DNA of 64,000 nt from Squalus acanthias. Its lineage: Eukaryota. The notes below the pieces were generated by a model that did not search any database, was not told where the DNA came from, and saw only the letters and a list, made by a program, of their open reading frames with translations. Of the stretch, positions 7,443-46,200 are shown one piece after another. The stretch is taken from contig CM059431.1 in assembly GCA_030390025.1 (NCBI GenBank), positions 136,092,001 to 136,156,000 of the forward strand. The letters are read 5' to 3'. The position numbers and the translations under genes were made by a program. Positions within the stretch are counted from its first letter, which is position 1, and each line of letters begins with the position of its first letter.

Positions 7443-9209
7443 TTATTCCGAGTCACCTGGTTCATCAGAAATATCCGTGCCAGCTGGGTCACCAGCAGCA
7501 CGCAGTTCTACAGATGCCACAGATTCTTCAGGCACTTCCGCTGCTGCGACTCTTTTGGAAGCTTTCTTAAACATGTTGCGGATGTTGGTTTGCTTAGTGG
7601 ACTCTTCCCTTTTCTGTAGAAAGGTGGAATGCAGAATATGGAGTTGCATACCTTCTTGTGCAGAGTAGCAAGTCTGCCTTTCAGCAAATTTGAGGATTGA
7701 AGAAAATCCTTCTGCAGCTTTAGCCCAAGAAATCTTCTCTTCTTCAGAAATATCATCCTCTTCACTTTCCATCTCACTTTCCTTTTCTTTCTTTGGATTC
7801 AAAACATTCTCAATTATTTCATCATCACTTAGCATATGCACAACACCAACTTCTCTATCTGCAGCAACCCACTGCTCGATATCACTTTCACTGAGGTGAT
7901 GTAGAGGGTTTGCTGGGCCTGCATTTTTCACCATGCCAGCCATTTCCATTATTGTACTCTTCTTGGGACGAACATTGAACCCATGAAATTCCTCCTCTGA
8001 AGAAGAACCTTCAGCAAACATTACAGAAGGCCACAATTTGCACCAGGCTTGCCTCAGAGTGTGACCTTTCACAAAGTTCCAGGAACATGCAACATTATAG
8101 ATGGCATCTTTAATATTGTATTCCTTCTGAAATTCTTGAATATTGTCATCTTGGCTTATCAGTTTACGTAGGAAGTCTTTCTTGTAATGACTCTTCAGAT
8201 TTTGGACAACGCCCTGGTCCATGGGTTGGATGAGAGAAGTTACATTTGGTGGCAAATAAATGGTGAAAATATTTCCTGAAATCAACTCGGATTCATGCGG
8301 ATGGGCTCTGCAATTATCAAGCAATAAAATGCATTTGCTATCTTCAGGTTTCCCTATTTTGCGGAAATTTTCCCTCACAGATGGAACAAAAATATGATGG
8401 AACCAATCGGAGAAGATTTCCTTATCCATCCAAGCATTTTTTTGAGCTTTGTACTCAACAGGTAAGTGCCTCACATTTTTAAATGCACGGGGATTTTTAT
8501 ACTTCCCGATAACAAGAAGTTTAACCTGGTGTGATCGAGCGGCGTTCGCACATGTTAGCACGGTTACACGATCTTTATTTTTCTTGTAACCTGAAGCATT
8601 AGCCTCACTAGCCCCAGCAAGCGTTGATTGTGGCAAAAACCTCCAAAACAAGCCAGTTTCATCGGCATTGTATATCTGTGCTGGCGACAAATCATGTTGC
8701 TGCACAATCCGATTGAAATAATCGCAGTATTCTTCTGCGACGTCGTGATCAGCTGATTTCTTCTCCCCGGAAATATCGAGTCGTCGTATCCCGTGCCGTA
8801 ACTTGAAGCACGTTAGCCATCCCTCGGAGAAAGCACACTTGTCAGTGAGCTCCATCCTTTCGTAGAATTCCTTCGCTTTCTCGATGAGCATGGGTCCGGA
8901 AATTGGAACACCCTCTGAACGCTTAAGAGAAAACCATTCAAAAAGCACGGTATCCAGCTCTTCAAGCTTAGGCTTACGAAGCGTACGCCGTTTCTCTACA
9001 CTCTTAGATGTCTCCGAGCTTGAATAAAACTTGAGCAGCTTATCCTTCTGCGATTTGATGTCGTAGATTGTTGACGAACCAATTTTGAATTCATTCATAA
9101 TGTTGATACGCTTCTCTCCCCTTTCTAGTCGTTGGCATATCTCGATTTTCTGTTTTAAAGTTAAGACCACTCTCTTCCTTTTGCTTGGACCAGCTTTTGG
9201 GAATTCCAT
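7443..9209 (-). CDS. Tigger/pogo transposase (CENP-B/Jerky-like HTH plus DD32D catalytic domain), 588 aa from the first ATG
   Basis: N-terminal [12 protein letters not shown] psq-type HTH and CENP-B HTH ([25 protein letters not shown]). Catalytic motifs [16 protein letters not shown] and IQPMDQG with 32 residues between the last two Asp. Acidic C-terminus. No stops or frameshifts. Confidence 0.93.
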
Positions 9210-9269
9210 AATGCAAGATGGAGGAGATAATTGCCGATGAAGATGGAAAGACACACAGAACAATGGTGG

Positions 9270-23338: not shown

Positions 23339-24945
23339 TGTAGAGTTTCGCAATTATCGCGATTCAAAATAACATGAGAGAAGCAGATTCAATTGATCAT
23401 TTTTATTAAACGAAATGCTGTCCTAATAATAAAGGACACAGAAGCCTGTAAAATGGCCGCCGCGCATCGTGGCAGAAGCTTCCAGAGACACAGTGGGCAG
23501 ACAAGATGACGTCGAATATACATTCAGTATGAGATCGTATCATACTCGGTACACATTGAAAAGGCAGGATGCAACCCGTTTGCATCCTGGACAATAGCAA
23601 TGATATAAGTGCTGGAATCGTTTCCTATGCACAGTAAGGATCATTGAACTGGGCCATCGAGAACCCATCTAGACACATCAATACACAAATACCCCCCCGG
23701 CTCAACAATGAGAGAGACATTGGCGGGTGATTAAGCCAGTATTCGGGGGGCCCCAAAACCAGTCGAGGAGACGATTCATACACATCCTGGCTGGCTCAAC
23801 AATGGAGAAGGTATTAACGGATAGTTGGCCAGTTTCAGGTGCCACCGAAACCCGTTAAGAAGATAATCGCCCCATGCTGGGAGTTTTGGGCGCCAAAATC
23901 ACACAAAGAATAAACGTTTAGATATGAGCGGGAGATAAGGCCGACAAAGCAGTATAACTATAGGGGACAAATGTCCATCGGTCTCTTGACTCTCTTGACT
24001 CGGGCTGAACTCTCTTGACTCTTGACTCTTCCTGAAGCTCTGGCTGGACGCTTTTTGACTTTTGACTCTTAGCCGTGCTGGTCGGTTATTCGAGTATTGG
24101 GTGGAGCTCAATCGGAACGAGCCACCTCGACAAGGGCAAGTAACAGGGTACACCATCCCGAGTGTCGGTAAACGGTGTCCGGACCCGGAGGCCTGAGTGA
24201 CGAGAAGAAAGACGAGAAAAAATTCCACGTGCCGCCACGGTCAGTAAACCCCGACCGCGCCCGAAGATATAACGACAGAACTCCTCTTTGAATTCTACCG
24301 ACTTCTACATGTACCGTTTCCTTTGAATTCTACGGATTACTGCACGATCCGGTTTGAATCCATCGATTGCTTCATGACATCAGGGAGTCTGGCTTGCCTT
24401 TCGCGGCAGCGAGAGTAAACAAGTGGGGTGCAGAAACCCTTCCAAACACGTGACAGTCAGGCGCTGCAGCGAAACGAGCTGAGTGCCTCACTTTAAATTT
24501 CCGAAGTGAACCGAGTGGTGAGCATGTTTTCCGATCCTACAAATCCAGACGTAGTTTAGGTATATTGAGGGAGGGTGGTTTTTCTAAGGTTAATGTATAA
24601 TGTGTTCCCCCTTTTACGATGTGTCGTGTGTTCCTCATTTCCATAGACCAAGTTTTATGAACGTGTGTATACTTGTACTCTTTTTGATCTGCGCCTATGA
24701 CATGTATTTCATGATTTTAGACGCCATGCAATAAAGATATTCATTTTGTGCTATTCAACCGGGTCTATTTGAGTTTTTCTCTGCATTACTGCTCCTTGCA
24801 TCTAAGTCCAGTTGTCAGAACCGTAAGGGCGAGTGGGTCGAACCACTCACAGGTGCTTATTGCAAAAAGGCTGGCCGGAGACCAGAGCAAGCAATAGTAT
24901 AGCCAACGAAGGCCTCACCTCGCACCAGTACCGTGACCCCTTACA
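23339..24945 (+). repeat. 5' LTR (about 1.6 kb, TGTA...TACA)
   Basis: Starts TGTAG and ends CTTACA 5 nt before the PBS. TATAA at about 23954 is followed by a CT-rich tract, with AATAAA at about 24730. The 3' boundary is inferred because the 3' LTR covers only the first 863 bp. Confidence 0.75.
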
Positions 24946-24949
24946 GAAA

Positions 24950-26749
24950 ATGGCGACCGCGGCAGGACCCTGGCAGCAACAGAGTAATGTCTTAGACCCA
25001 GGTTTGAATAGACGAAATGTAATGGACGAGAAGGTAGCCGACTATGTGTTTGGGAAAGTTAACTTAACCAAACAGTGGATATGTGACCTACTGACGGATA
25101 GGCGTCCGCTAGACGCCGCCATCAGATGGACAGGTAGCAAAGATCATAAGAAGTCGGTAGAGAAAGCGGTCTGGCTGATGTGCTACAAGAAGCAAGTCCA
25201 ACTTTCGGACCAGGTCATTGCAGCACAGGCAGCTCAGATCAGGGAATTAGAAACAGAGATGGAGGAAAAGGTTACGGGAGGACAGAGACTGATTGCATCA
25301 TTGAATGCGTTGCAACAGGACCGCCAAGTAGTAGCCAACCACCACGAGGCTAGGATTGATTACCTAGAATGTCAGGTCACGGAAGCAAAATTAAGTGAGG
25401 GAAGGATTAGAGAACGGTGTATCCGCCTAGCTAACCAGATAAAGGCCCAGGAAGAAAGTTTGAGGGGAGTTAGGGCGGCATACAAGATGGCTCTCGAGGA
25501 TAGGCATGAGGGAGCCGACCACAGCGTTTGTCAGAGGGAGTTAGAGAACCTGAGAGAGGCCCTGAATAAGGCAAACGGCTTGGTGTGTCTCATCAGCCCA
25601 TCAGCGAGCCAGCCACAGGTAGGTAGGGAATTCCCAAAATCCCTACCGGGAAAAGCAGAAGTGGTATCAACCACCAAGCCCTCCGCGCCACCCAGCTATA
25701 CGGAAACCTGGGTAAGGGAGGAAGTGGAGGAAATAGAGAAGAAGGTTCCCGAGGTAGGACAATCCCCAGAGGTAGTGTCGAGACCGGGACCGATGTGTCC
25801 GGTCCAAGGTCATAAGAGAGGCCCGAATGGGAACAATGGGGAAGACGGGGATATCCTGAACCAACTTGTAGTGCCCCACAGCTCACACCAGCTGAGGGCA
25901 ATGATCAGCCATGTCCGGAAGCTGTCCGAGTCAGGAGACCCTTCCGTGCATTTTAGGGAAGTAGAACAGACCGCAGCGATTAATGGCTGCGACAACGAGG
26001 AAAAGACCAAGATGTTGCTGTTCTCTTTAGATAGCTCAATCTTTCAGTGTCTCTCCGACGAGAGCAAGAGGGGAGCTAAAGGCTATGGGGATTTACGGGA
26101 CGAGGTCCTAGAAGTGTTAGGGGCAGATGACGAAGGTCCGTTCGTCAGACTGGGTCAGACCGTGCAGATAGAGGGAGAACCCCCACGGGTTTTCGCCGAC
26201 AGACTGTGGCCAGTATACCAGTGTAGCTGCCCAGGTGCGCCAGAGCGCAACTATCTGGACGGCGCCGGGAAAGCTCATTGGCTCAGGTGCATAGTAGCCA
26301 ACAGCTTGCCAGCCATCAGGGAGCAGGCCAGAGCGTGGTTTGATCCCACCAACCCCGAGACAACGGAGGAGTCTGTCCTGAGTCACCTCACCATATGGTA
26401 TCGGAACACTAGAAGCACGGGAGCGCGTCCCCTTAAGGGAAAAGTGCATGAAGCAAAGCCCGCAGCTCCGGCTCAGAAAGAGTGGCATCAGGAGGGAAAT
26501 CGCGCCCCACAAACCAGTAGTGTTTGTTACGGGTGCGGGAAGGCAGGTCACTGGCGTAAAAACTGTAGGGATCCCTGGAAGGACTCCAGGGAAAAAGCTC
26601 CCGCAGTCCGAGCCCAGACGCCTGTCTCTGAGAGAGGAGCTGGTGTGCCTATCCATCCCGACGCGATCGAATCAATGTTAGGAGCCATGCGGTCTCTCAT
26701 GACCTCACACGGGGAGGTAGCAACAGCCCCATACAACCCAGACTTCTGA
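24950..26749 (+). CDS. gag: Gag polyprotein (599 aa from the ATG at 24950)
   Basis: Open frame with an N-terminal coiled coil and PSAPPSY late domain (25679-25699). A putative helical capsid region follows (Q.EGEPPRVFADRL is MHR-like), then the zinc knuckle CYGCGKAGHWRKNC (26525-26566). Confidence 0.88.
   Translation: MATAAGPWQQQSNVLDPGLNRRNVMDEKVADYVFGKVNLTKQWICDLLTDRRPLDAAIRWTGSKDHKKSVEKAVWLMCYKKQVQLSDQVIAAQAAQIRELETEMEEKVTGGQRLIASLNALQQDRQVVANHHEARIDYLECQVTEAKLSEGRIRERCIRLANQIKAQEESLRGVRAAYKMALEDRHEGADHSVCQRELENLREALNKANGLVCLISPSASQPQVGREFPKSLPGKAEVVSTTKPSAPPSYTETWVREEVEEIEKKVPEVGQSPEVVSRPGPMCPVQGHKRGPNGNNGEDGDILNQLVVPHSSHQLRAMISHVRKLSESGDPSVHFREVEQTAAINGCDNEEKTKMLLFSLDSSIFQCLSDESKRGAKGYGDLRDEVLEVLGADDEGPFVRLGQTVQIEGEPPRVFADRLWPVYQCSCPGAPERNYLDGAGKAHWLRCIVANSLPAIREQARAWFDPTNPETTEESVLSHLTIWYRNTRSTGARPLKGKVHEAKPAAPAQKEWHQEGNRAPQTSSVCYGCGKAGHWRKNCRDPWKDSREKAPAVRAQTPVSERGAGVPIHPDAIESMLGAMRSLMTSHGEVATAPYNPDF
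24951..24968 (+). promoter_or_regulatory. Primer-binding site, tRNA-Ser-like
   Basis: TGGCGACCGCGGCAGGAC. TGG complements the tRNA CCA end. It shares TGGCG....CGGCAGGA with the complement of the vertebrate tRNA-Ser 3' end as recalled, an imperfect match. Confidence 0.7.
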
Positions 26750-27856
26750 CTGGAACCGGTGCAGCCTGCCTACCTGTGTCCCCTTGAAAGACACGCACAG
26801 GAGGGGGCCTCCTGTAAGGAGGCCAGGTTAAGAGAGCAGGCCTTACGGGAAGAGAACGCCCGCTTAATGGGGAAAGTAGACGGGCTAGAAGGGCAGCTTA
26901 GAGACATAAAGGCAGCCTACAGGGTAGCCAGGAGCAGGGAGTATGAGGATTTAAACCACGGGCCCTGTGAGGAAAGGATAAAAGGTCTGACCCAAGCCCT
27001 ATCCAAAGCCAGAGGGATGGTTTGCTCAACAACCCCGGGGGAATTCACCACCCTGCAGTTGCAAGCCATGGTAGCAGTGTTGCCCAAACTAAAACAGAAT
27101 AGAAATCTTCAGCCTCCAGCAGGCGAGATTTCACAGAATGCACAAGCAGGGGCGGTGGCCTGTCATAGGGGAGGGGCCAGACCTGCGAGTGGGGACTCTC
27201 AGCCCCGGGTAGAACCGCAGGGCACACAGGCCGGTAAAGCAGCCTGCGTGAGGGGAGAGGACATTCTGGAAAAGTGTAGGATCTTTTCTTTTTCTTGGGA
27301 TTCAGATGAGGAAGAGCTCGGAGGGCTCAACCAAGTTTGTGACCCGGTCGGAGAGGTGGTGGGGTCGGAGGACGGAGGTTCCGCCCTCGACCCAAGTATA
27401 GGGGAGGTAGGGATTGCGAGTGGAGATCCACCTACTGGAGAAACAAGTAGGGTGGAGTCGGAAACCGCAGATCCCGAGCCCAGGGGGGCGGAGCCAGGGG
27501 AGACAGAGCCGGCAGCTGTGGTGGGACCACAGGCTGTGACGGCGGAAGTCCCGGTCCGTCGGTCCTGGGGGTCTTGCCCAAGGTGGCCCTCCGCAGGTCG
27601 AGTCGGACACCCCAGCCCAGGAAGTTGTGGTCAGATCCCTCGTACACCCCCAGGCGTAAGTTCAAGGCAGCCCAGGAAGGTCCCAGTCCCAGCTCAGCAG
27701 CGACAGGCTGCGGCAGATCAAAGACAAGGGTCAGTGCCCCCCCCCCCCCCCGCAACGGGGAAGAGCTCGTGGCAGTCTTTTCAGGATCTAGGTAGGCCGC
27801 CCTGGGAACGGGCGGCGCTGTACAGTTATTTTAGGAGGATAAGTTTAGGTTTATAG
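26750..27856 (+). CDS. Gag-in-frame ORF2: divergent paralogue of the Gag coiled-coil region plus an acidic/Pro-rich low-complexity tail
   Basis: Same frame as gag after the single TGA and open for 368 codons. It has 26/69 ungapped identities to Gag residues at 25382-25588. Confidence 0.6.
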   Translation: MEPVQPAYLCPLERHAQEGASCKEARLREQALREENARLMGKVDGLEGQLRDIKAAYRVARSREYEDLNHGPCEERIKGLTQALSKARGMVCSTTPGEFTTLQLQAMVAVLPKLKQNRNLQPPAGEISQNAQAGAVACHRGGARPASGDSQPRVEPQGTQAGKAACVRGEDILEKCRIFSFSWDSDEEELGGLNQVCDPVGEVVGSEDGGSALDPSIGEVGIASGDPPTGETSRVESETADPEPRGAEPGETEPAAVVGPQAVTAEVPVRRSWGSCPRWPSAGRVGHPSPGSCGQIPRTPPGVSSRQPRKVPVPAQQRQAAADQRQGSVPPPPPATGKSSWQSFQDLGRPPWERAALYSYFRRISLGL

Positions 27857-28094
27857 TGTTTTAATATCAGGTTAAGATTGTAGTTTAATTTCATAAGTAA
27901 ATGGTAAGATTGTAGTTTAATTTCATAAGTAAATGGTAAATGATGGGAGTTAGTGATAGGAACAGTTAAGGTCTATCCAGTATACATGTCTTGTACGTGA
28001 GACGAGGTCAAGGGACCCGCTCACCCTTCACAAAAGCCAGAGACTCTTGGGAGGCTGGCTACATCATTTTATCTGATCACAGGAACCAGGAGAT

Positions 28095-29515
28095 ATGGAA
28101 AGGATTCTGGTAGTGCTCGCAACGATCGGATATGGATTGGCCTATCGGGGCCTCACCAAGGATGTCGTTGTGTTCGGTTGCTCCGGGGACACTGCCCCCA
28201 TCACAACGGATGGGACCGGGGAGCGAAAGGCTGAGGAAACCGCCACTTAGTTCCACAAGGGAAGGTGGCCGGGATGGCTGGGAACGAATTCGACGGAATA
28301 CTCCAGCGCATCCGGGTTTGCGTACAAAGAGACTTCTTTACTGTGTTCCAGGGTGAGGATCGTTGCACCCAGAATCAGCGTCACCATCGGCAAAAGGATT
28401 TGTTTGGTGTGCAATGGGAACGTCCCATTGAGCCGATGGTGGTGGTTACGGAAATTAAGCAAGACTATGAGAAATTCCTCGGTCGAGTGGGAGCGATTGG
28501 GTAACAATACCCATCGGACAATTACGGGGACTAACGGACAATTGAAAGTCTGTTGGGACAAATGGTGGGAGCCGGATGAGGGAATATATGTTTGTATGTG
28601 GGGATCGAAGTACGTTTGCCCCAAGGGTATATCCATATTTTTCCTACAACAGTGGCAGGATGCCGGGGAAGGGATGAGGTGGGATGTCAGTACTAAGGGG
28701 TGCGGAGCTCCATTCTCCCCGATCCCGGTAAACGCCACTGAACTCATCACACGCCCACGCAAGTCTCCACCCACGATTCCGGTGGCATTGGCTCAGGAGG
28801 AAGGGTGCCCTAAAACCACTAAGGGGCCCGGGAATGGTCTGGTACTGGTGCCAACAGATCAGATACTATATCAAGGGGTACATTACGCGGTGGCCTCGGT
28901 GATTCTAAATCTCACCGAGGTGCATTTACCAGAGTGGTGCCCCAAAGAAACGGAAAAATTGTACCAGGTCCGGTTAACAAACATGTTCAGGCAATTTTAT
29001 GAGTTTGATTTTGCAGAGGTTGACAAAACAAGCTTATACACCACACCACATGAAGTTTTGGGTCAGGTGGGAAGACAAAGACGGGGTGCTGTGAACGATG
29101 TGTTCACTGCTTTTAATACGGGAACATCTGTGGTCAACGCTCTAGATAATGTGGAGCTGCAGACACAGATCAACGGTTTAAAGACATCATTCCCCCTCTC
29201 CCTGAACACCTCACCAAGATTTTAAAAGCCGTCATGGTATCACAGAAACATTTTTACACCCTGGAACAGAAAACTGCAGAGATAGGGGCAGAGATATTGG
29301 ATATAGTAACCCCACCGTGGTGGGATCTGTTCACTAATATTGAGGTCCCGTCATGGATCAGGATAGCCTCCCACATTTTGGTAGTATGTCAAGTTGTAAT
29401 TGTAGTGTACCTGTTGTTCGTGCACTGCAAAAGAGGCAAAAGCCTCACGAAGCAGGAGAACACAGGGGAGTGGAGAGAACGTTACGTGCGCGTGAACGAG
29501 GAAAGTACCGCGTAG
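28095..29515 (+). pseudogene. env: env-like class I fusion glycoprotein, disrupted
   Basis: ATG at 28095 gives the signal peptide MERILVVLATIGYGLA, with an in-frame TAG at 28248. A Cys/Trp-rich surface region and furin site RQRR (29073-29084) are followed by a fusion-peptide/heptad segment. A frameshifting junction at about 29188 leads to a heptad, PPWWDLF, a transmembrane helix (ILVVCQVVIVVYLLFV) and a cytoplasmic tail. Confidence 0.8.
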
Positions 29516-29901
29516 ACTGCCAGGATGACGCCCCTCCATTTTACCGTGTGTGTTTTTGTAATTGTTGTAGTTATAAGTATTTGTGACTAAGTTTGGAACT
29601 TTTGTATTTTTAAAACAGTTGGTTTAATTGTTTTTTCTTTTGTAATAAAACATGCATATACAGGTAGTGCGAGAGGCATCGGCCTTTTGCACCTGGAAGG
29701 CGAATACGCAGTGTAAGTTTAAAGGCAATACTGCCTACGATTTGTCCAAGATAGACAATGTGTTTTCTCTGGGAAATGAGGACTACATGTGTCATGGAGG
29801 CCATAGATAGTTTAATTACCGGAAGTGTTTGGATGTGGAGAATTGGGATAATTTGCTCACCAGCATTTAATTGATACGAAAAGCGGAGTTATTCGCATCA
29901 A

Positions 29902-29911
29902 CAGGAGGGAC
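29902..29911 (+). promoter_or_regulatory. Polypurine tract
   Basis: CAGGAGGGAC immediately 5' of the TG of the 3' LTR. Confidence 0.7.
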
Positions 29912-30760
29912 TGTAGAGTTTCGCAATTATCGCGATTCAAAATAACATGAGAGAAGCAGATTCAATTGATCATTTTTATTAAACGAAATGCTGTCCTAAT
30001 AATAAAGGACACAGAAGCCTGTAAAATGGCTGCTGCGCATCGTGGCAGAAGCTTCCAGAGACACAGTGGGCAGACAAGATGGCGTCGAATATACATTCAG
30101 TATGAGATCGTATCATACTCGGTACACATTGAAAAGGTAGGATGCAACCCGTTTGCATCCTGGACAATAGCAATGATATAAGTGCTGGAATCGTTTCCTG
30201 CGCACAGTAAGGATCATTGAACTGGGCCATCGAGAACCCATCTAGACACATCAATACACAAATACCCCCCCGGCTCAACAATGAGAGAGACATTGGCGGG
30301 TGATTAAGCCAGTATTCGGGGGGCCCCAAAACCAGTCGAGGAGACGATTCATACACATCCTGGCTGGCTAAACAATGGAGAAGGTATTAACGGATAGTTG
30401 GCCAGTTTCAGGTGCCACCGAAACCCGTTAAGAAGATAATCGCCCCATGCTGGGAGTTTTGGGCGCCAAAATCACACAAAGAATAAACGATTAGATATGA
30501 GTGGGAGATAAGGCTGACAAAGCAGTATAACTATAGGGGACAAATGTCCATCGGTCTCTTGACTCGGGCTGAACTCTCTTGACTCTTCCTGAAGCTCTTG
30601 CTGGACGCTTTTTGACTTTTGACTCTTAGCCGTGCTGGTCGGTTATTCGAGTGTTGGGTGGAGCTCAATCGGAACGAGCCGCCTCGACAAGGGCAAGTAA
30701 CAGGGTACACCATCCCGAGTGTCGGTAAACGGTGTCCGGACCCGGAGGCCTGAGTGACCA
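29912..30760 (+). repeat. 3' LTR (shortened)
   Basis: Matches 23339-24201 with about 13 substitutions by eye and two small indels (16 bp total) in the CTCTTGA repeats. Similarity stops at TGAGTGAC, which is followed by CA. Confidence 0.93.
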
Positions 30761-41101: not shown

Positions 41102-41262
41102 AGGAATTTAAATTCCGTTCATTAAATAAATCGAATAAAAAGCTAGTTTCAGTAATGGTGACCATGAAACTACCGGATTGTCCAACAACCCATCTGGTTC
41201 ACTAATGTTCTTTAGGGAAGGAAATCTGCCATTCTTCCGCGGTCAGGCTGGCATGTGACTCC
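41102..41262 (+). mobile_element. V-SINE (HE1-like) fragment
   Basis: AAAAAGCTAG...TGGTGACCATGAAAC...CCCATCTGGTTCACTAATGT.CTTTAGGGAAGGAAATCTGCC...ATGTGACTCC resembles the V-domain of elasmobranch HE1 SINEs, from recall. Confidence 0.65.
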
Positions 41263-43054
41263 TCGGGCCTGAGGAGCCGCTGTGTCCGGGGTCGGTCCTC
41301 CAGCCTGGGGGTGGCGCTGTTTCCAAGGTTGGTCCACCGTCCTGAGGGAGGCGCTATGTGCGGGGTCGGTCCTCCGCCCTGGGGGCGGTGCTGTGTCCGG
41401 GCCCGGGGTCGGTCCTCCGGCCTGGGGGTGACGCTGTTTCCGGTGTCGGTCCTCCGGCCAGAGGGAGGCGCTGCGTCCGGTGTCGGTCCTCGGGCCTGGT
41501 GGTGGCGCTGCATGCGGGGTCGGTCTTCCGGCCTGGGGTTGGCGCTGTTTCCGGGGTTGGTCCTCCGGCCTGGGGCTGCCGCTGTGTGCGGGGTCGGTCC
41601 TCCGGCCTGAGGGATGCGCTGTTTCCAGGGTCGGATCTCTGGTCTGAGGCAGGCGCTGTGACCGGAGTCGGTCCTCCGGCCTGGGGCTGGCGCTGTGTGC
41701 GGGGTGGGTCTCCGGCCTGGGGGTGGCGCTGTTTCCGGAGTCGGTCCTCCTGCCTGCGGGTGAAGCTTTGTCCGGAGTCGGTCCTCCGGCCTGAGGGAGG
41801 CGCTGTGTCCGCAGTCGGTCCTCCGGTCTGGGGGTGACGCTGTGTCCGGAGTCGGTCCTCCGGGCTGGGGTTGGCGCTGAAGGCGGAGTCGGTCCTCCGG
41901 CCTCGGGGTGGCGCTGTGTCCGGTGTCGGGCCTCCGCCCAGGGGAGGCGCTGTGGCCGGGGTCGGTCCTCCAGCCTCTGGGTGGTGCTGTGTCCGGTGTC
42001 GGTCCTCCGGCATGGGGGAGGCGCAGTTTCCGGGGTCGGTCCACCGGTCTGAAGGAGGCGCTGTGTCCTGACTCGGTCCACCGGCCTGGGGGTGGCGCTG
42101 TGTCCAGAGTCGGTCCTCCAGCCTGGGGGTGGCGCTGTTTCCGTGGTCGGTCCTCCGGCCTGAGGGAGGCGCTGCGTCCGGTGTCGGTCCTCCGGCCGGG
42201 TGGTGGCGCTGTGTCCGGAGTCGGTCCTCCGGCCTGGGGTTGGCGCTGTGTCCGGAGTCAGTCCTCCGGCCTGGGGGCGGCGCTGCATGCGGGGTCGGTC
42301 TTCCGGCCTGGGGTTGGCGCTGTTTCCGGGGTTGGTCCTCCGGCCTGGGGCTGCCGCTGTGTGCGGGGTCGGTCCTCCGGCCTGAGGGATGCGCTGTTTC
42401 CAGGGTCGGATCTCTGGTCTGAGGCAGGCGCTGTGACCGGAGTCGGTCCTCCGGCCTGGGGCTGGCGCTGTGTGCGGGGTGGGTCTCCGGCCTGGGGGTG
42501 GCGCTGTTTCCGGAGTCGGTCCTCCTGCCTGCGGGTGAAGCTTTGTCCGGAGTCGGTCCTCCGGCCTGAGGGAGGCGCTGTGTCCGCAGTCGGTCCTCCG
42601 GTCTGGGGGTGACGCTGTGTCCGGAGTCGGTCCTCCGGGCTGGGGTTGGCGCTGAAGGCGGAGTCGGTCCTCCGGCCTCGGGGTGGCGCTGTGTCCGGTG
42701 TCGGGCCTCCGCCCAGGGGAGGCGCTGTGGCCGGGGTCGGTCCTCCAGCCTCTGGGTGGTGCTGTGTCCGGTGTCGGTCCTCCGGCATGGGGGAGGCGCT
42801 GTTTCCGGGGTCGGTCCACCGGTCTGAAGGAGGCGCTGTGTCCTGACTCGGTCCACCGGCCTGGGGGTGACACTGTGTCCGGAGTCGGTCCTCCGGCCTG
42901 GGGGTGGCGCTGTTTCCGTGGTCGGTCCTCCGGCCTGAGGGAGGCGCTGCGTCCGGTGTCGGTCCTCCGGCCGGGTGGTGGCGCTGTGTCCGGAGTCGGT
43001 CCTCCGGCCTGGGGTTGGCGCTGTGTCCGGAGTCGGTCCTGCAGCCTGAGCGAG
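41263..43054. repeat. CpG-rich 37-bp satellite with a 775-bp higher-order repeat
   Basis: Consensus GGCGCTGTGTCCGGAGTCGGTCCTCCGGCCTGGGGGT (period 37, 42131 to 42168). The variant pattern repeats at offset 775 (41834 versus 42609). Confidence 0.95.
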
Positions 43055-43254
43055 NNNNNNNNNNNNNNNNNNNNNNNNNNNNNNNNNNNNNNNNNNNNNN
43101 NNNNNNNNNNNNNNNNNNNNNNNNNNNNNNNNNNNNNNNNNNNNNNNNNNNNNNNNNNNNNNNNNNNNNNNNNNNNNNNNNNNNNNNNNNNNNNNNNNNN
43201 NNNNNNNNNNNNNNNNNNNNNNNNNNNNNNNNNNNNNNNNNNNNNNNNNNNNNN
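43055..43254. other. Assembly gap (200 N)
   Basis: Run of exactly 200 N, likely a fixed-size scaffolding spacer. Confidence 0.99.
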
Positions 43255-46200
43255 AGACCACTACAGGAGTAGAATAATCACAGACCACACAGAGTAGATC
43301 ATCACAAACCACGACGAGTAGAATCATTACAGACCACTACAGGAGTAGAATCTTCACAGACCACTACAGGAGTAGAATCATCACAGACCACTACAGGAGT
43401 AGAATCATCACAGACCACTACAGGAGTAGAATCATCACAGACCACTACAGGAGTAGAATCATCACAGACCACTACAGGAGTAGAATCATCACAGACCACT
43501 ACAGGATTAAATCATCACAGACCACTACAGGCGTAGATCATCAGAACCCACTACAGGAGTAGGATCATCACAGACCACTGCAGGATAGAATCATCACAGA
43601 CCACTACAGGAGTAGAATCATCACAGACCACTACAGGAGTAGAATCATCACAGACCACTACAGATAGAATCATCACAGACCACTACAGGAGTAGGAATCA
43701 TCACAGACCACTACAGGAGTAGAATCATCACAGACCACTACAGGATAGAATCATCACAGACCACTACAGGAGAGGATCATCACAGACCACTACAGGAGTA
43801 GAATCATCACAGACCACTAAAGGAGTAGAATCATCACAGACCACTACAGGAGTAGAATCATCACAAGACCACTACAGAGTAGAATCATCACAGACCACTA
43901 CAGAGTAGAATCATTACAGACCACTACAGGAGTAGAAACATCACAGACCACAACAGATGTAGAATCATCACAGACCACTGCAGGAGTAGAATCATCACAG
44001 ACCACTACAGGAGTAAATAATCACACAGACCACTACAGGATAGAATCATCACAGACCACTACAGTAGAATCATCACGACCACTACAGGAGTAGAATCATC
44101 ACAGACCACTACAGGATAGAATCATCACAGACCACTACAGGAGTAGAATCATCACAGATCACTACAGGAGTAGAATCATCACAGACCACTACAGGAGTAG
44201 AATCATCACAGACCACAACATGAGTTAGATCATCACAGACCACTACAGGAGTAGAATCAACACAGACCACTACAGGAGTAGAATCATCATAGACCACTAC
44301 AGGAGTAAGAATCATCACAGACCACTACAGGAGTAGAATCATCACAGACCACTACAGGAGTAGAATCATCACAGACCACTACAGGAGTAGAATCATCACA
44401 GACCACTACAGGAGTAGAATCATCACAGACCACTACAGGAGTAGATCATCACAGACCACTACAGAAGTAGAATCATCACAGACCACTACAGGAGTAGGAT
44501 CATCACAGACCACTACAGAGTAGAATCATCACAGACCACTACAGAAGTAGAATCATCACAGACCACTACAGGAGTAGATCATCACAGACCACTACAGGAG
44601 TAGAATCATCACAGACCACTACAGAGTAGAATCATCACAGACCACTACAGGAGTAAATCATCACAGACCACTACAGGAGTAAATCATCACAGACCACTAC
44701 AGGAGTAGAATCATCACAGACCACTACAGGAGTAGAATCATCACAGACCACTACAGGAGTAGGATCATCACAGACCACTACAGGAGTAGAATCATCACAG
44801 ACCACTACAGGAGAATCATCACAGACCACTACAGGAGTAGGACATCACAGGACTAGTAGAATCATCACAGACCACTACAGGAGTAGAATCATCACAGACC
44901 ACTACAGGATAGAATCATCACAGACCACTACAGGAGTAGAATCATCACAGACCACTACAGGAGTAGATCATCACAGACCACTACAGGAGTAGAATCATCA
45001 CAGACCACTACAGGAGTAGAATCATCACAGACCACTACAGGAGTAGAATCATCACAGACCACTACAGGAGTAGAATCATCACAGACCACTACAGGAGTAG
45101 AATCATCACAGACCACTACAGGAGTAGAATCATCACAGACCACTACAGGAGTAGGATCATCACAGACCACTACAGGAGTAGAATCATCACAGACCACTAC
45201 AGGAGTAGAAGCATCACAGACCACTACACAAGAGTAAATCATCACAGACCACTACAGAGTAGGATCATCACAGACCACTACAGGAGTAGAATCATCACAG
45301 ACCACTACAGGAGTAGAATCATCACAGACCACTACAGGAGTAGGATCATCACAGACCACTACAGGAGTAGAATCATCACAGACCACTACAGGAGAATCAT
45401 CACAGACCACTACAGGAGTAGAATCATCACAGACCACTACAGGTGTAGGATCATCACACAGACCACTACAGAATAGAATCATCAAGACCACTACAGGAGA
45501 AATCATCACAGACCACTACAGGAGTAGAATCATCACAGACCACTACAGGAGTAGAATCATCACAGAAACACTACAGGAGTAGAATCATCACAGACCACGA
45601 CAGGAGTAGAATCATCACAGACCACTACAGGAGTAGAATCATCACAGACCACTACAGAGTAGAATCATCACAGACCACTACAGGATAGAATCATCACAGA
45701 CCACTACAGAATAGAATCATCACAGACCACTACAGGAGTAGAATCATCACAGAAACTACAGGAGTAGTCATCACAGACACCTACAGGAGTAGAATCATCA
45801 CAGACCACTACAGAGTAGAATCATCACAGACCACTACAGGAGTAGAATCATCACAGACCACTACAGGAGTAGGATCATCACAGACCACTACAGGAGTAGA
45901 ATCATCACAGACCACTACAGGAGTAGAATCATCACAGACCACTACAGGAGTAGAATCATCACAGACCACTACAGGAGTAGAATCATCACAGACCACTACA
46001 GGAGTAGAATCATCACAGACCACTACAGGAGTAGAATAATCACAGACCACTACAGGAGTAGAATCATCAAGACACGACAGGAGTAGGATGATCACAGACC
46101 ACTACAGGTGTAGAATCATCACAGACCACTACAGGAGTAGAATCATCACAGGCCACTACGGAGTAGAATCATCACAGACCACTACAGGAGTAGAATCATC

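Follow-up and report, generated by a model that had tools for sequence, protein, structure and literature searches.

An open frame behind gag in an endogenous retrovirus of Squalus acanthias is a recombination mosaic and appears selected to stay open to the native Pol stop

In a 64,000-nt stretch of DNA from Squalus acanthias (GenBank assembly GCA_030390025.1, contig CM059431.1, positions 136,092,001 to 136,156,000 of the forward strand; hereafter the window, numbered from its first letter), the open frame following gag in an endogenous retrovirus (ERV), termed ORF2, is a recombination mosaic in which a cassette of about 420 nt together with the C-terminal tail of Pol has replaced protease, reverse transcriptase (RT), RNase H and integrase. 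Of this anatomy and origin of ORF2 we are virtually certain. The frame would best be explained as the remnant pol frame of a non-autonomous ERV that is kept open for a benefit acting most likely in cis, a reading to which, anatomy and mechanism taken together, a probability of about 0.58 is assigned. In a previous sequence-only reading, ORF2 had been regarded as an ancient duplicate of the N-terminal domain of Gag, possibly serving as an accessory protein, for example an assembly modulator or a dominant-negative superinfection factor. The similarity of the Gag-like block is real, yet an ancient duplication of the element's own gag is not the origin of ORF2.

The LTR element and its surroundings

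ORF2 resides in an LTR element occupying 23339-30758 of the window, in a host genome of 3.7 Gb. The element has the order 5' LTR, primer-binding site, gag (599 aa), TGA, ORF2, broken env and truncated 3' LTR. Outside ORF2, the following features were delimited, all on the plus strand:

23339..24945, + strand: 5' LTR (TG...CA), aligned with the 3' LTR
24951..24968, + strand: primer-binding site, assigned from the sequence
24950..26749, + strand: gag of family A, 599 aa, ending in TGA followed by CTG G
25382..25588, + strand: coiled-coil block of the element's own Gag, homologue of the ORF2 block and not its source
28095..29515, + strand: env, broken by an in-frame stop at 28248-28250 and the loss of about 305 codons at 29186
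29912..30758, + strand: 3' LTR, ending after about 846 nt, with a purine tract just before it

The primer-binding site, which we take to be of the tRNA-Arg type, overlaps the first ATG of the gag frame (window 24950-24968), and a methionine at gag residue 26, common to the sibling families, may be the real start. The gag product comprises an N-terminal coiled coil, a capsid-like region and one CCHC knuckle, the coil being modelled as helix 2-101, a loop and helix 108-127 (numbering of the modelled part). Its closest named relatives are Gags from skate, catshark, horn shark and whale shark. In a predicted whale shark protein, a further rearrangement with the same coil, a Gag coiled-coil block is fused directly to an Env N-terminus. 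Elsewhere in the window, a 608-codon open frame on the minus strand (7443-9269), presumably a Tigger/pogo-type transposase lookalike, is found amid CR1-like LINE fragments, and in 41200-64000 a GC-rich repeat, spanning about 41200-43300, gives way to roughly 21 kb of a 27-nt tandem satellite that contains assembly gaps.

Mosaic composition of ORF2

As had been noticed from the sequence, window 26819-27025 matches Gag 25382-25588 without gaps at 26 of 69 residues (99/207 nt). This similarity is significant in a composition-adjusted BLASTP (E = 2e-13), and its score was reached by none of 2000 shuffled sequences in each of four schemes (whole sequence or windows of 10, 7 and 4 residues) and by none of 5000 heptad-preserving shuffles. 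The block is Gag-derived, but its source is the gag of another family: its DNA agrees with one family G gag at 204/225 nt versus 105/225 nt for the element's own gag, and a tree in which ORF2 is constrained to group with the latter is rejected (p-AU 0.00026; one family H row left out for lack of letters). At the protein level, families C, D and E reach 48-49% against the ORF2 block, compared with 37% for the own Gag. The DNA difference of 53%, previously taken as a divergence far older than that of the LTRs, is the distance between two families. From the ORF2 coil to its donor, the distance amounts to about 9% (21/225 nt), while 5' and 3' LTR differ by 13 substitutions in 846 aligned nt. ORF2 is identified as a mosaic because its segments match the protease start, a G/F coil, an F helix, an H tail and the family A Pol tail:

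26723..26749, + strand: last gag codons and stop, which arrived with the cassette from a family B/H-type element
26750..26788, + strand: ORF2 residues 1-13, protease N-terminal stub (start of pol), from sequence comparison
26789..27043, + strand: ORF2 residues 14-98, Gag coiled coil of sibling families G/F, with a 10-codon in-frame deletion
27044..27097, + strand: ORF2 residues 99-116, first capsid helix from family F gag (93-95% DNA identity, 5/5 F copies)
27098..27171, + strand: ORF2 residues 117-141, start of the family H tail (Pol-tail-type motif), from the H match
27172..27791, + strand: Pol C-terminal tail of family A, from behind integrase to the Pol stop (92-95% nt identity, 4/4 pol-bearing copies)

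Identity to pol-bearing family A stops at 26713-26722, and the gag-end segment is 84-86% identical to family B over 63 nt and 90% to one family H copy from 26726. The ORF2 start is identical to the pol start of pol-bearing siblings at 10/16 positions. The match of QLQAMV...KL to Gag is genuine and corresponds to the first capsid helix, and the linker as well as the remaining capsid and nucleocapsid are missing from ORF2, as had been stated. An origin of residues 125-141 from the RNase H-integrase linker was considered and dropped, as these residues matched the family H tail instead. From residue 142 onward ORF2 is Pol tail, and no protease core, RT or integrase is present in it. Pfam gave only a coiled-coil match below threshold for ORF2, and protein searches with it gave no match, which is weak evidence since readthrough frames are seldom annotated. 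Across the families, the Pol tail comprises about 200-250 residues after integrase and is acidic and rich in Pro, Ser and Arg; motifs common to families A, B, H and I are AG.AAC/AG.VAC, an acidic W(D/E)S patch and RRS..PQP..W. The tail may be an uncharacterised accessory peptide.

Sibling families and spread of the cassette

A second group of gag matches is pol-bearing, with protease-RT in 4/4 sampled, and the Gags of these siblings of family A are about 88-95% identical. Families B-E were found with other Gags as queries. For the donor search, two sequence patterns were built to exclude ORF2 itself, resulting in 111 matches for family F (control 0) and 73 for family G, the latter being common to family H. 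In family H, the cassette is about 90% identical and stands behind a B-like gag end and in front of a different tail (11/12 loci, one partial). Family I represents a third context in the same genome, with stub and coil behind an A-like gag end at 12/12 loci, which were picked by the gag-end motif only and blind to frame. The cassette occupies at least three host families. Moreover, its junctions are bridged in contigs from three other organisms, where a third host context is also shown, so the cassette either predates the split of these organisms or moved between them; it would be young in sequence terms, not necessarily in years.

In a tree of the second coil repeat, family H branches at the base and A is derived, with I falling inside A (support 97/94 and 98/93, to be taken as modest since the tree rests on 105 nt). 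The cassette thus originated in family H or close to it, passed into A and underwent remodelling in I. A genome search for the stub/coil junction allowing up to 3 mismatches gave 1,490 matches (control 0), compared with 3,050 for the RT motif across families.

Family B (L043, L044, L066, L067) carries an independent pol deletion and no coil, and its readthrough frame fuses, in frame, a piece of protease, the RNase H end, the two integrase ends and the Pol tail. Two F/G recombinants (L050, L051), the gag of which is an F/G mosaic, are RT-less, with protease joined in frame to the RNase H end and integrase. Family D includes a copy type (L041, with numerous matches having a 246-codon frame) found repeatedly on small contigs and close to contig ends, which suggests amplification in subtelomeric repeats.

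Expression by stop codon readthrough

Of 14 loci examined in the various families, 12 have a gag stop of the form TGA-CT(A/G) lying in phase with protease, while the search pattern did not match the other two; the CTG form following TGA in the window is also present in one pol-bearing copy (L040). Given this in-frame arrangement at 12/14 loci, the pol-bearing siblings would have to make Pol by gag-UGA readthrough. UGA-CUA is a readthrough context of animal viruses (PMC13517186), for which the accessible portion of this source names alphaviruses and a dicistrovirus, with other contexts given for fish retroviruses. UGA-CUA(G)-type readthrough is apparently used by the whole ERV group. A conserved stimulatory structure after the gag stop was not found in 6 loci (z from -2.6 to +1.1).

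An own start codon and a place between pol and env of pol-bearing relatives had been suggested as checks for ORF2. Of 11 family H copies that span the codon of its first methionine (residue 40), 10 have threonine there, and 4/4 pol-bearing relatives examined lack such an ORF between pol and env. Since there is no conserved start and the frame lies in phase behind a leaky-type UGA, ORF2 could only be a readthrough extension of Gag and not a separate gene. The predicted product, made at low level, would be Gag-stub-coil-tail.

Maintenance of the open frame

The frame of ORF2 is the clearest signal of selection. All ten family-level rearrangements of the cassette keep the ancestral frame, i.e., five junctions, a 69-nt duplication and four family I events (a 6-nt insertion, a 138-nt deletion, a coil-to-integrase-end junction and a 9-nt deletion). 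At a chance of one in three each, this corresponds to 1.7e-5, where the first six were seen in a frame noticed for being open and where in-phase template switching at microhomology raises the chance of an in-frame junction above one in three; one cassette junction carries 7 nt of microhomology. Among indels in the non-coding pol-env spacer, 2/17 are multiples of three. In family I, with a mean divergence of 13%, 12/12 copies are open over all 329 codons fetched, showing 0 stops versus 11-27 expected and 14-22 in each of the other two frames. All four family I copies that were traced beyond this stretch terminate at the Pol stop and have env downstream. The tails of this family may have been imported from pol-bearing relatives, in which case the stop test overstates selection in pol-less elements because Pol keeps the tails open there. 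An automatic DNA-level indel count for family I (7/16 in frame, p = 0.26) splits gaps in divergent alignments and is unreliable.

Among 30 family A copies picked by ORF2 similarity, 18 are open to the common Pol stop, mostly over 346 or 369 codons, 346 being typical and 369 including the in-frame 69-nt coil duplication. The 368 open codons previously emphasized for the window are a copy-specific length, the last about 100 codons lying outside the family frame: in this copy, 7 nt are missing near 27550 and the C run near 27740 is extended, by which the frame is shifted twice. When family A copies were picked by gag, 3/10 whole copies reached the Pol stop (14 fetched; two pol-bearing, one at a contig end and one truncated left out). 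At least 311 codons are open at 2/12 family H loci, and of two family B copies, without coil, one is fully open to the tail and the other shifted in the tail. Stops and frameshifts accumulate copy by copy after insertion. Shared losses of 7 nt in two family A copies and of 1 nt in two family H copies are both located at slippery repeats, and three +1 shifts in the duplicated coil are private, as they lie at different places. The earlier view that the frame is maintained appears correct, with the frame apparently selected to stay open to the native Pol stop, whereas a separate accessory gene is unsupported.

A benefit in cis as preferred explanation

Recombination among sibling families swapped the enzymes for the cassette joined to the Pol tail. 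According to the preferred explanation, few ribosomes would pass the gag UGA to produce the extended Gag, and selection would preserve an open frame as far as the native Pol stop. A benefit in cis could come from translation up to the Pol stop stabilizing the element RNA and/or from delivery of a Pol-tail peptide into the particle built on the element's own RNA. The enzymes would be supplied in trans by a helper, and pol-bearing helpers are present in the same genome (the 4/4 sampled siblings with protease-RT). The coil would mainly be an in-frame filler, perhaps weakly oligomerizing, and not the purpose of the gene. A benefit in cis is considered most likely, as has been reported for mouse IAP 1-delta-1. 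Against this account, the amino acid constraint on the coil between families exceeds the need of a pure filler; an explanation via NMD is weak, as the frame cuts the stop-to-poly(A) distance by only about 1 kb.

Codon-level constraint and alternative explanations

For family A, in the 28 copies left after removal of two tandem twins and with codons observed at least 3 times, omega (dN/dS) was 0.29 (0.20-0.41) in gag and 0.32 (0.15-0.66) in env, values which may partly reflect recombination with pol-bearing siblings, 0.73 (0.24-4.1) in ORF2 residues 1-141 and 1.18 (0.66-2.3) in the tail (range 0.96-1.18). Neutrality of the tail does not discriminate between explanations because the Pol tail is about neutral in pol-bearing copies too (63 S/133 N versus 142/129 in protease-RT). 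Between families, omega of the coil is 0.35 (0.15-0.91) for I versus A and 0.36 (0.13-0.98) for I versus H, compared with 1.15 for the tail. In the comparison across copies proposed earlier, the coil hence seems to be under modest constraint between families, a post hoc result as the coil and tail segments were chosen after seeing the data, whereas the tail is about neutral.

These between-family values favour an alternative that we consider possible but rather unlikely, i.e., that the coil is the functional part, which dimerizes the readthrough product or binds the coil of a helper Gag or Gag-Pol (G/F), thereby importing the enzymes. Also in its favour, the coil is the sole part of the cassette kept in all three host families, duplicated and not lost, and its second repeat in family I has accumulated 7 synonymous changes versus 5-6 mostly conservative replacements (manual codon-table count). 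In addition, the cassette is first seen behind a B-like Gag, the sampled relatives of which are pol-deleted. However, besides the post hoc choice of segments, the intervals span 1 within families and for A versus H (0.66-0.86, CI 0.26-3) as well as for I versus I (0.61, 0.30-1.32). The duplicated 23 residues do not amount to whole heptads, in lineages B and G pol was lost in frame with no coil in its place, and family A has pol-bearing siblings with the similar Gags mentioned above and needs no adaptor. Moreover, if attached to the C-terminus of Gag, the coil would be expected to face away from the N-terminal coils in the lattice. The S/N ratio of the coil was 7/11 (p = 0.32 versus gag plus env, p = 0.22 versus neutral). 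A 2-residue insertion in family I thought to restore the heptad register was not upheld by eye, and a complex prediction for the own Gag coil with the ORF2 coil (score 0.04, run without alignments) is counted neither way. If the adaptor reading were true, it would amount to cross-family parasitism through a mobile protein module; the wider claim that a transferable cassette of about 1,500 copies replaced pol in at least three other backgrounds and recruits helper Gag-Pol is regarded as unlikely.

Quite improbable is a neutral scar, by which a pol-less recombinant spread owing to its shortness, was passed on by recombination and is open through in-phase microhomology and youth. It would agree with the tail omega of about 1, with the decay of copies after insertion, with the amino acid identity of the cassette to family G over residues 45-98 at its origin, and with ORF2 residues 1-124 being less constrained in A plus H than gag plus env (S/N 13/24 versus 83/70, p = 0.044). 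At odds with it, the frame was kept in ten of ten rearrangements, including four in a family sampled blind to frame, 12 diverse family I copies are free of stops, and the three +1 shifts in the duplicated coil are private. Finally, it is hardly credible that the element duplicated its own gag long ago and retained the copy as a separate accessory or dominant-negative superinfection factor: although the similarity to the own Gag is significant and the frame maintained, the coil came from a sibling family (91% nt), pol-bearing relatives lack such an ORF (4/4), a conserved start is missing, and the features stressed in that reading (H-x2-C, VC and QLQAMV..KL, the latter in the capsid helix) are all absent from 12/12 family I copies via two different in-frame junctions. 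Nothing supports a dominant-negative or superinfection role, as the cassette belongs to a mobile family of high copy number (1,490 junction matches), not to a fixed host locus, and decays after insertion.

With the claim of an ancient Gag-derived accessory gene removed, the remnant pol frame with a benefit in cis is preferred, and translating ORF2 probably helps enzyme-less elements to spread. Several independent pol-less lineages in one genome, with the gag-readthrough frame open after enzyme loss, constitute a natural experiment, and the findings suggest that non-autonomous retroviruses depend to some extent in cis on translation of the readthrough frame or on the Pol tail. Since the copies number about 1,500 and the junctions are many, counting alone could address this question. 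Furthermore, protein-coding modules move among co-resident ERV families.

Comparison with known systems

Fv1 and enJSRV Gag, restriction factors derived from Gag, are host loci that arose by domestication and comprise capsid domains. ORF2 likewise is a Gag-derived protein fragment, but it belongs to a mobile high-copy cassette and has at most one capsid helix, which is lost in one family. A literature search, with Repbase and subscription journals outside its reach, found no report of such a cassette.

In its coiled-coil Gag, the element resembles lokiretroviruses and zebrafish BHIKHARI, yet it is not classed with them. The lokiretrovirus 'smc' is a coiled-coil region in a fish retrovirus-like element; as far as the accessible text of PMC7947760 goes, it forms the N-terminal part of Smc-Gag(-Pol), equivalent to the normal Gag coil of the shark element. 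An identification of ORF2 with the 'smc' gene was rejected, as the latter is the N-terminal part of Gag and not a second copy in pol position. LTR-gag-pol-env organization with a coiled-coil Gag N-terminus is a lokiretrovirus trait present here. Nevertheless, the element is not classed as a lokiretrovirus because its Env is without PF00523 (no Pfam family at E <= 0.1 in the 789-aa sibling Env) and the lokiretrovirus host list, in the portion of PMC7947760 at hand, names no cartilaginous fish. The best solved matches of the RT are MLV-type (205 bits) and foamy (190), ahead of Ty3 (138), and no lineage is assigned from them. In the part of a pol-bearing sibling that was compared, an RNase H-like domain follows RT; lokiretroviruses have a dual RNase H (tether plus RNase H). 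Snakehead-retrovirus-like and epsilon-like lineages are named in excerpts of a shark ERV survey (PMC4422223).

Like the shark element, BHIKHARI (Bik-1) is a pol-less fish ERV with an N-terminal coiled coil in Gag, and it is thought to be mobilised by a partner; unlike the shark element, it has a single gag ORF, and the preprint parts available (bioRxiv 10.1101/2024.03.25.586437) describe no second coiled-coil frame, Pol tail or env. For MoMLV, avoidance of NMD has been linked to readthrough, according to the accessible part of PMC7566565.

The only precedent found for a benefit in cis is mouse IAP 1-delta-1, a non-autonomous element in which an in-frame fusion of gag and pol aids retrotransposition in cis, as stated in the available portions of PMC6466679 and PMC7411935 citing Saito et al. 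(2008). Unlike IAP 1-delta-1, the shark element has a complete gag, so that the fusion needs stop readthrough, carries foreign gag pieces in place of the enzymes, keeps env, and has a cassette that moved between families. Both elements are highly successful, cis action being reported for the IAP fusion only. As in IAP 1-delta-1, a gag-pol rearrangement in a non-autonomous LTR element has left an open fusion frame, with the enzymes needed in trans.
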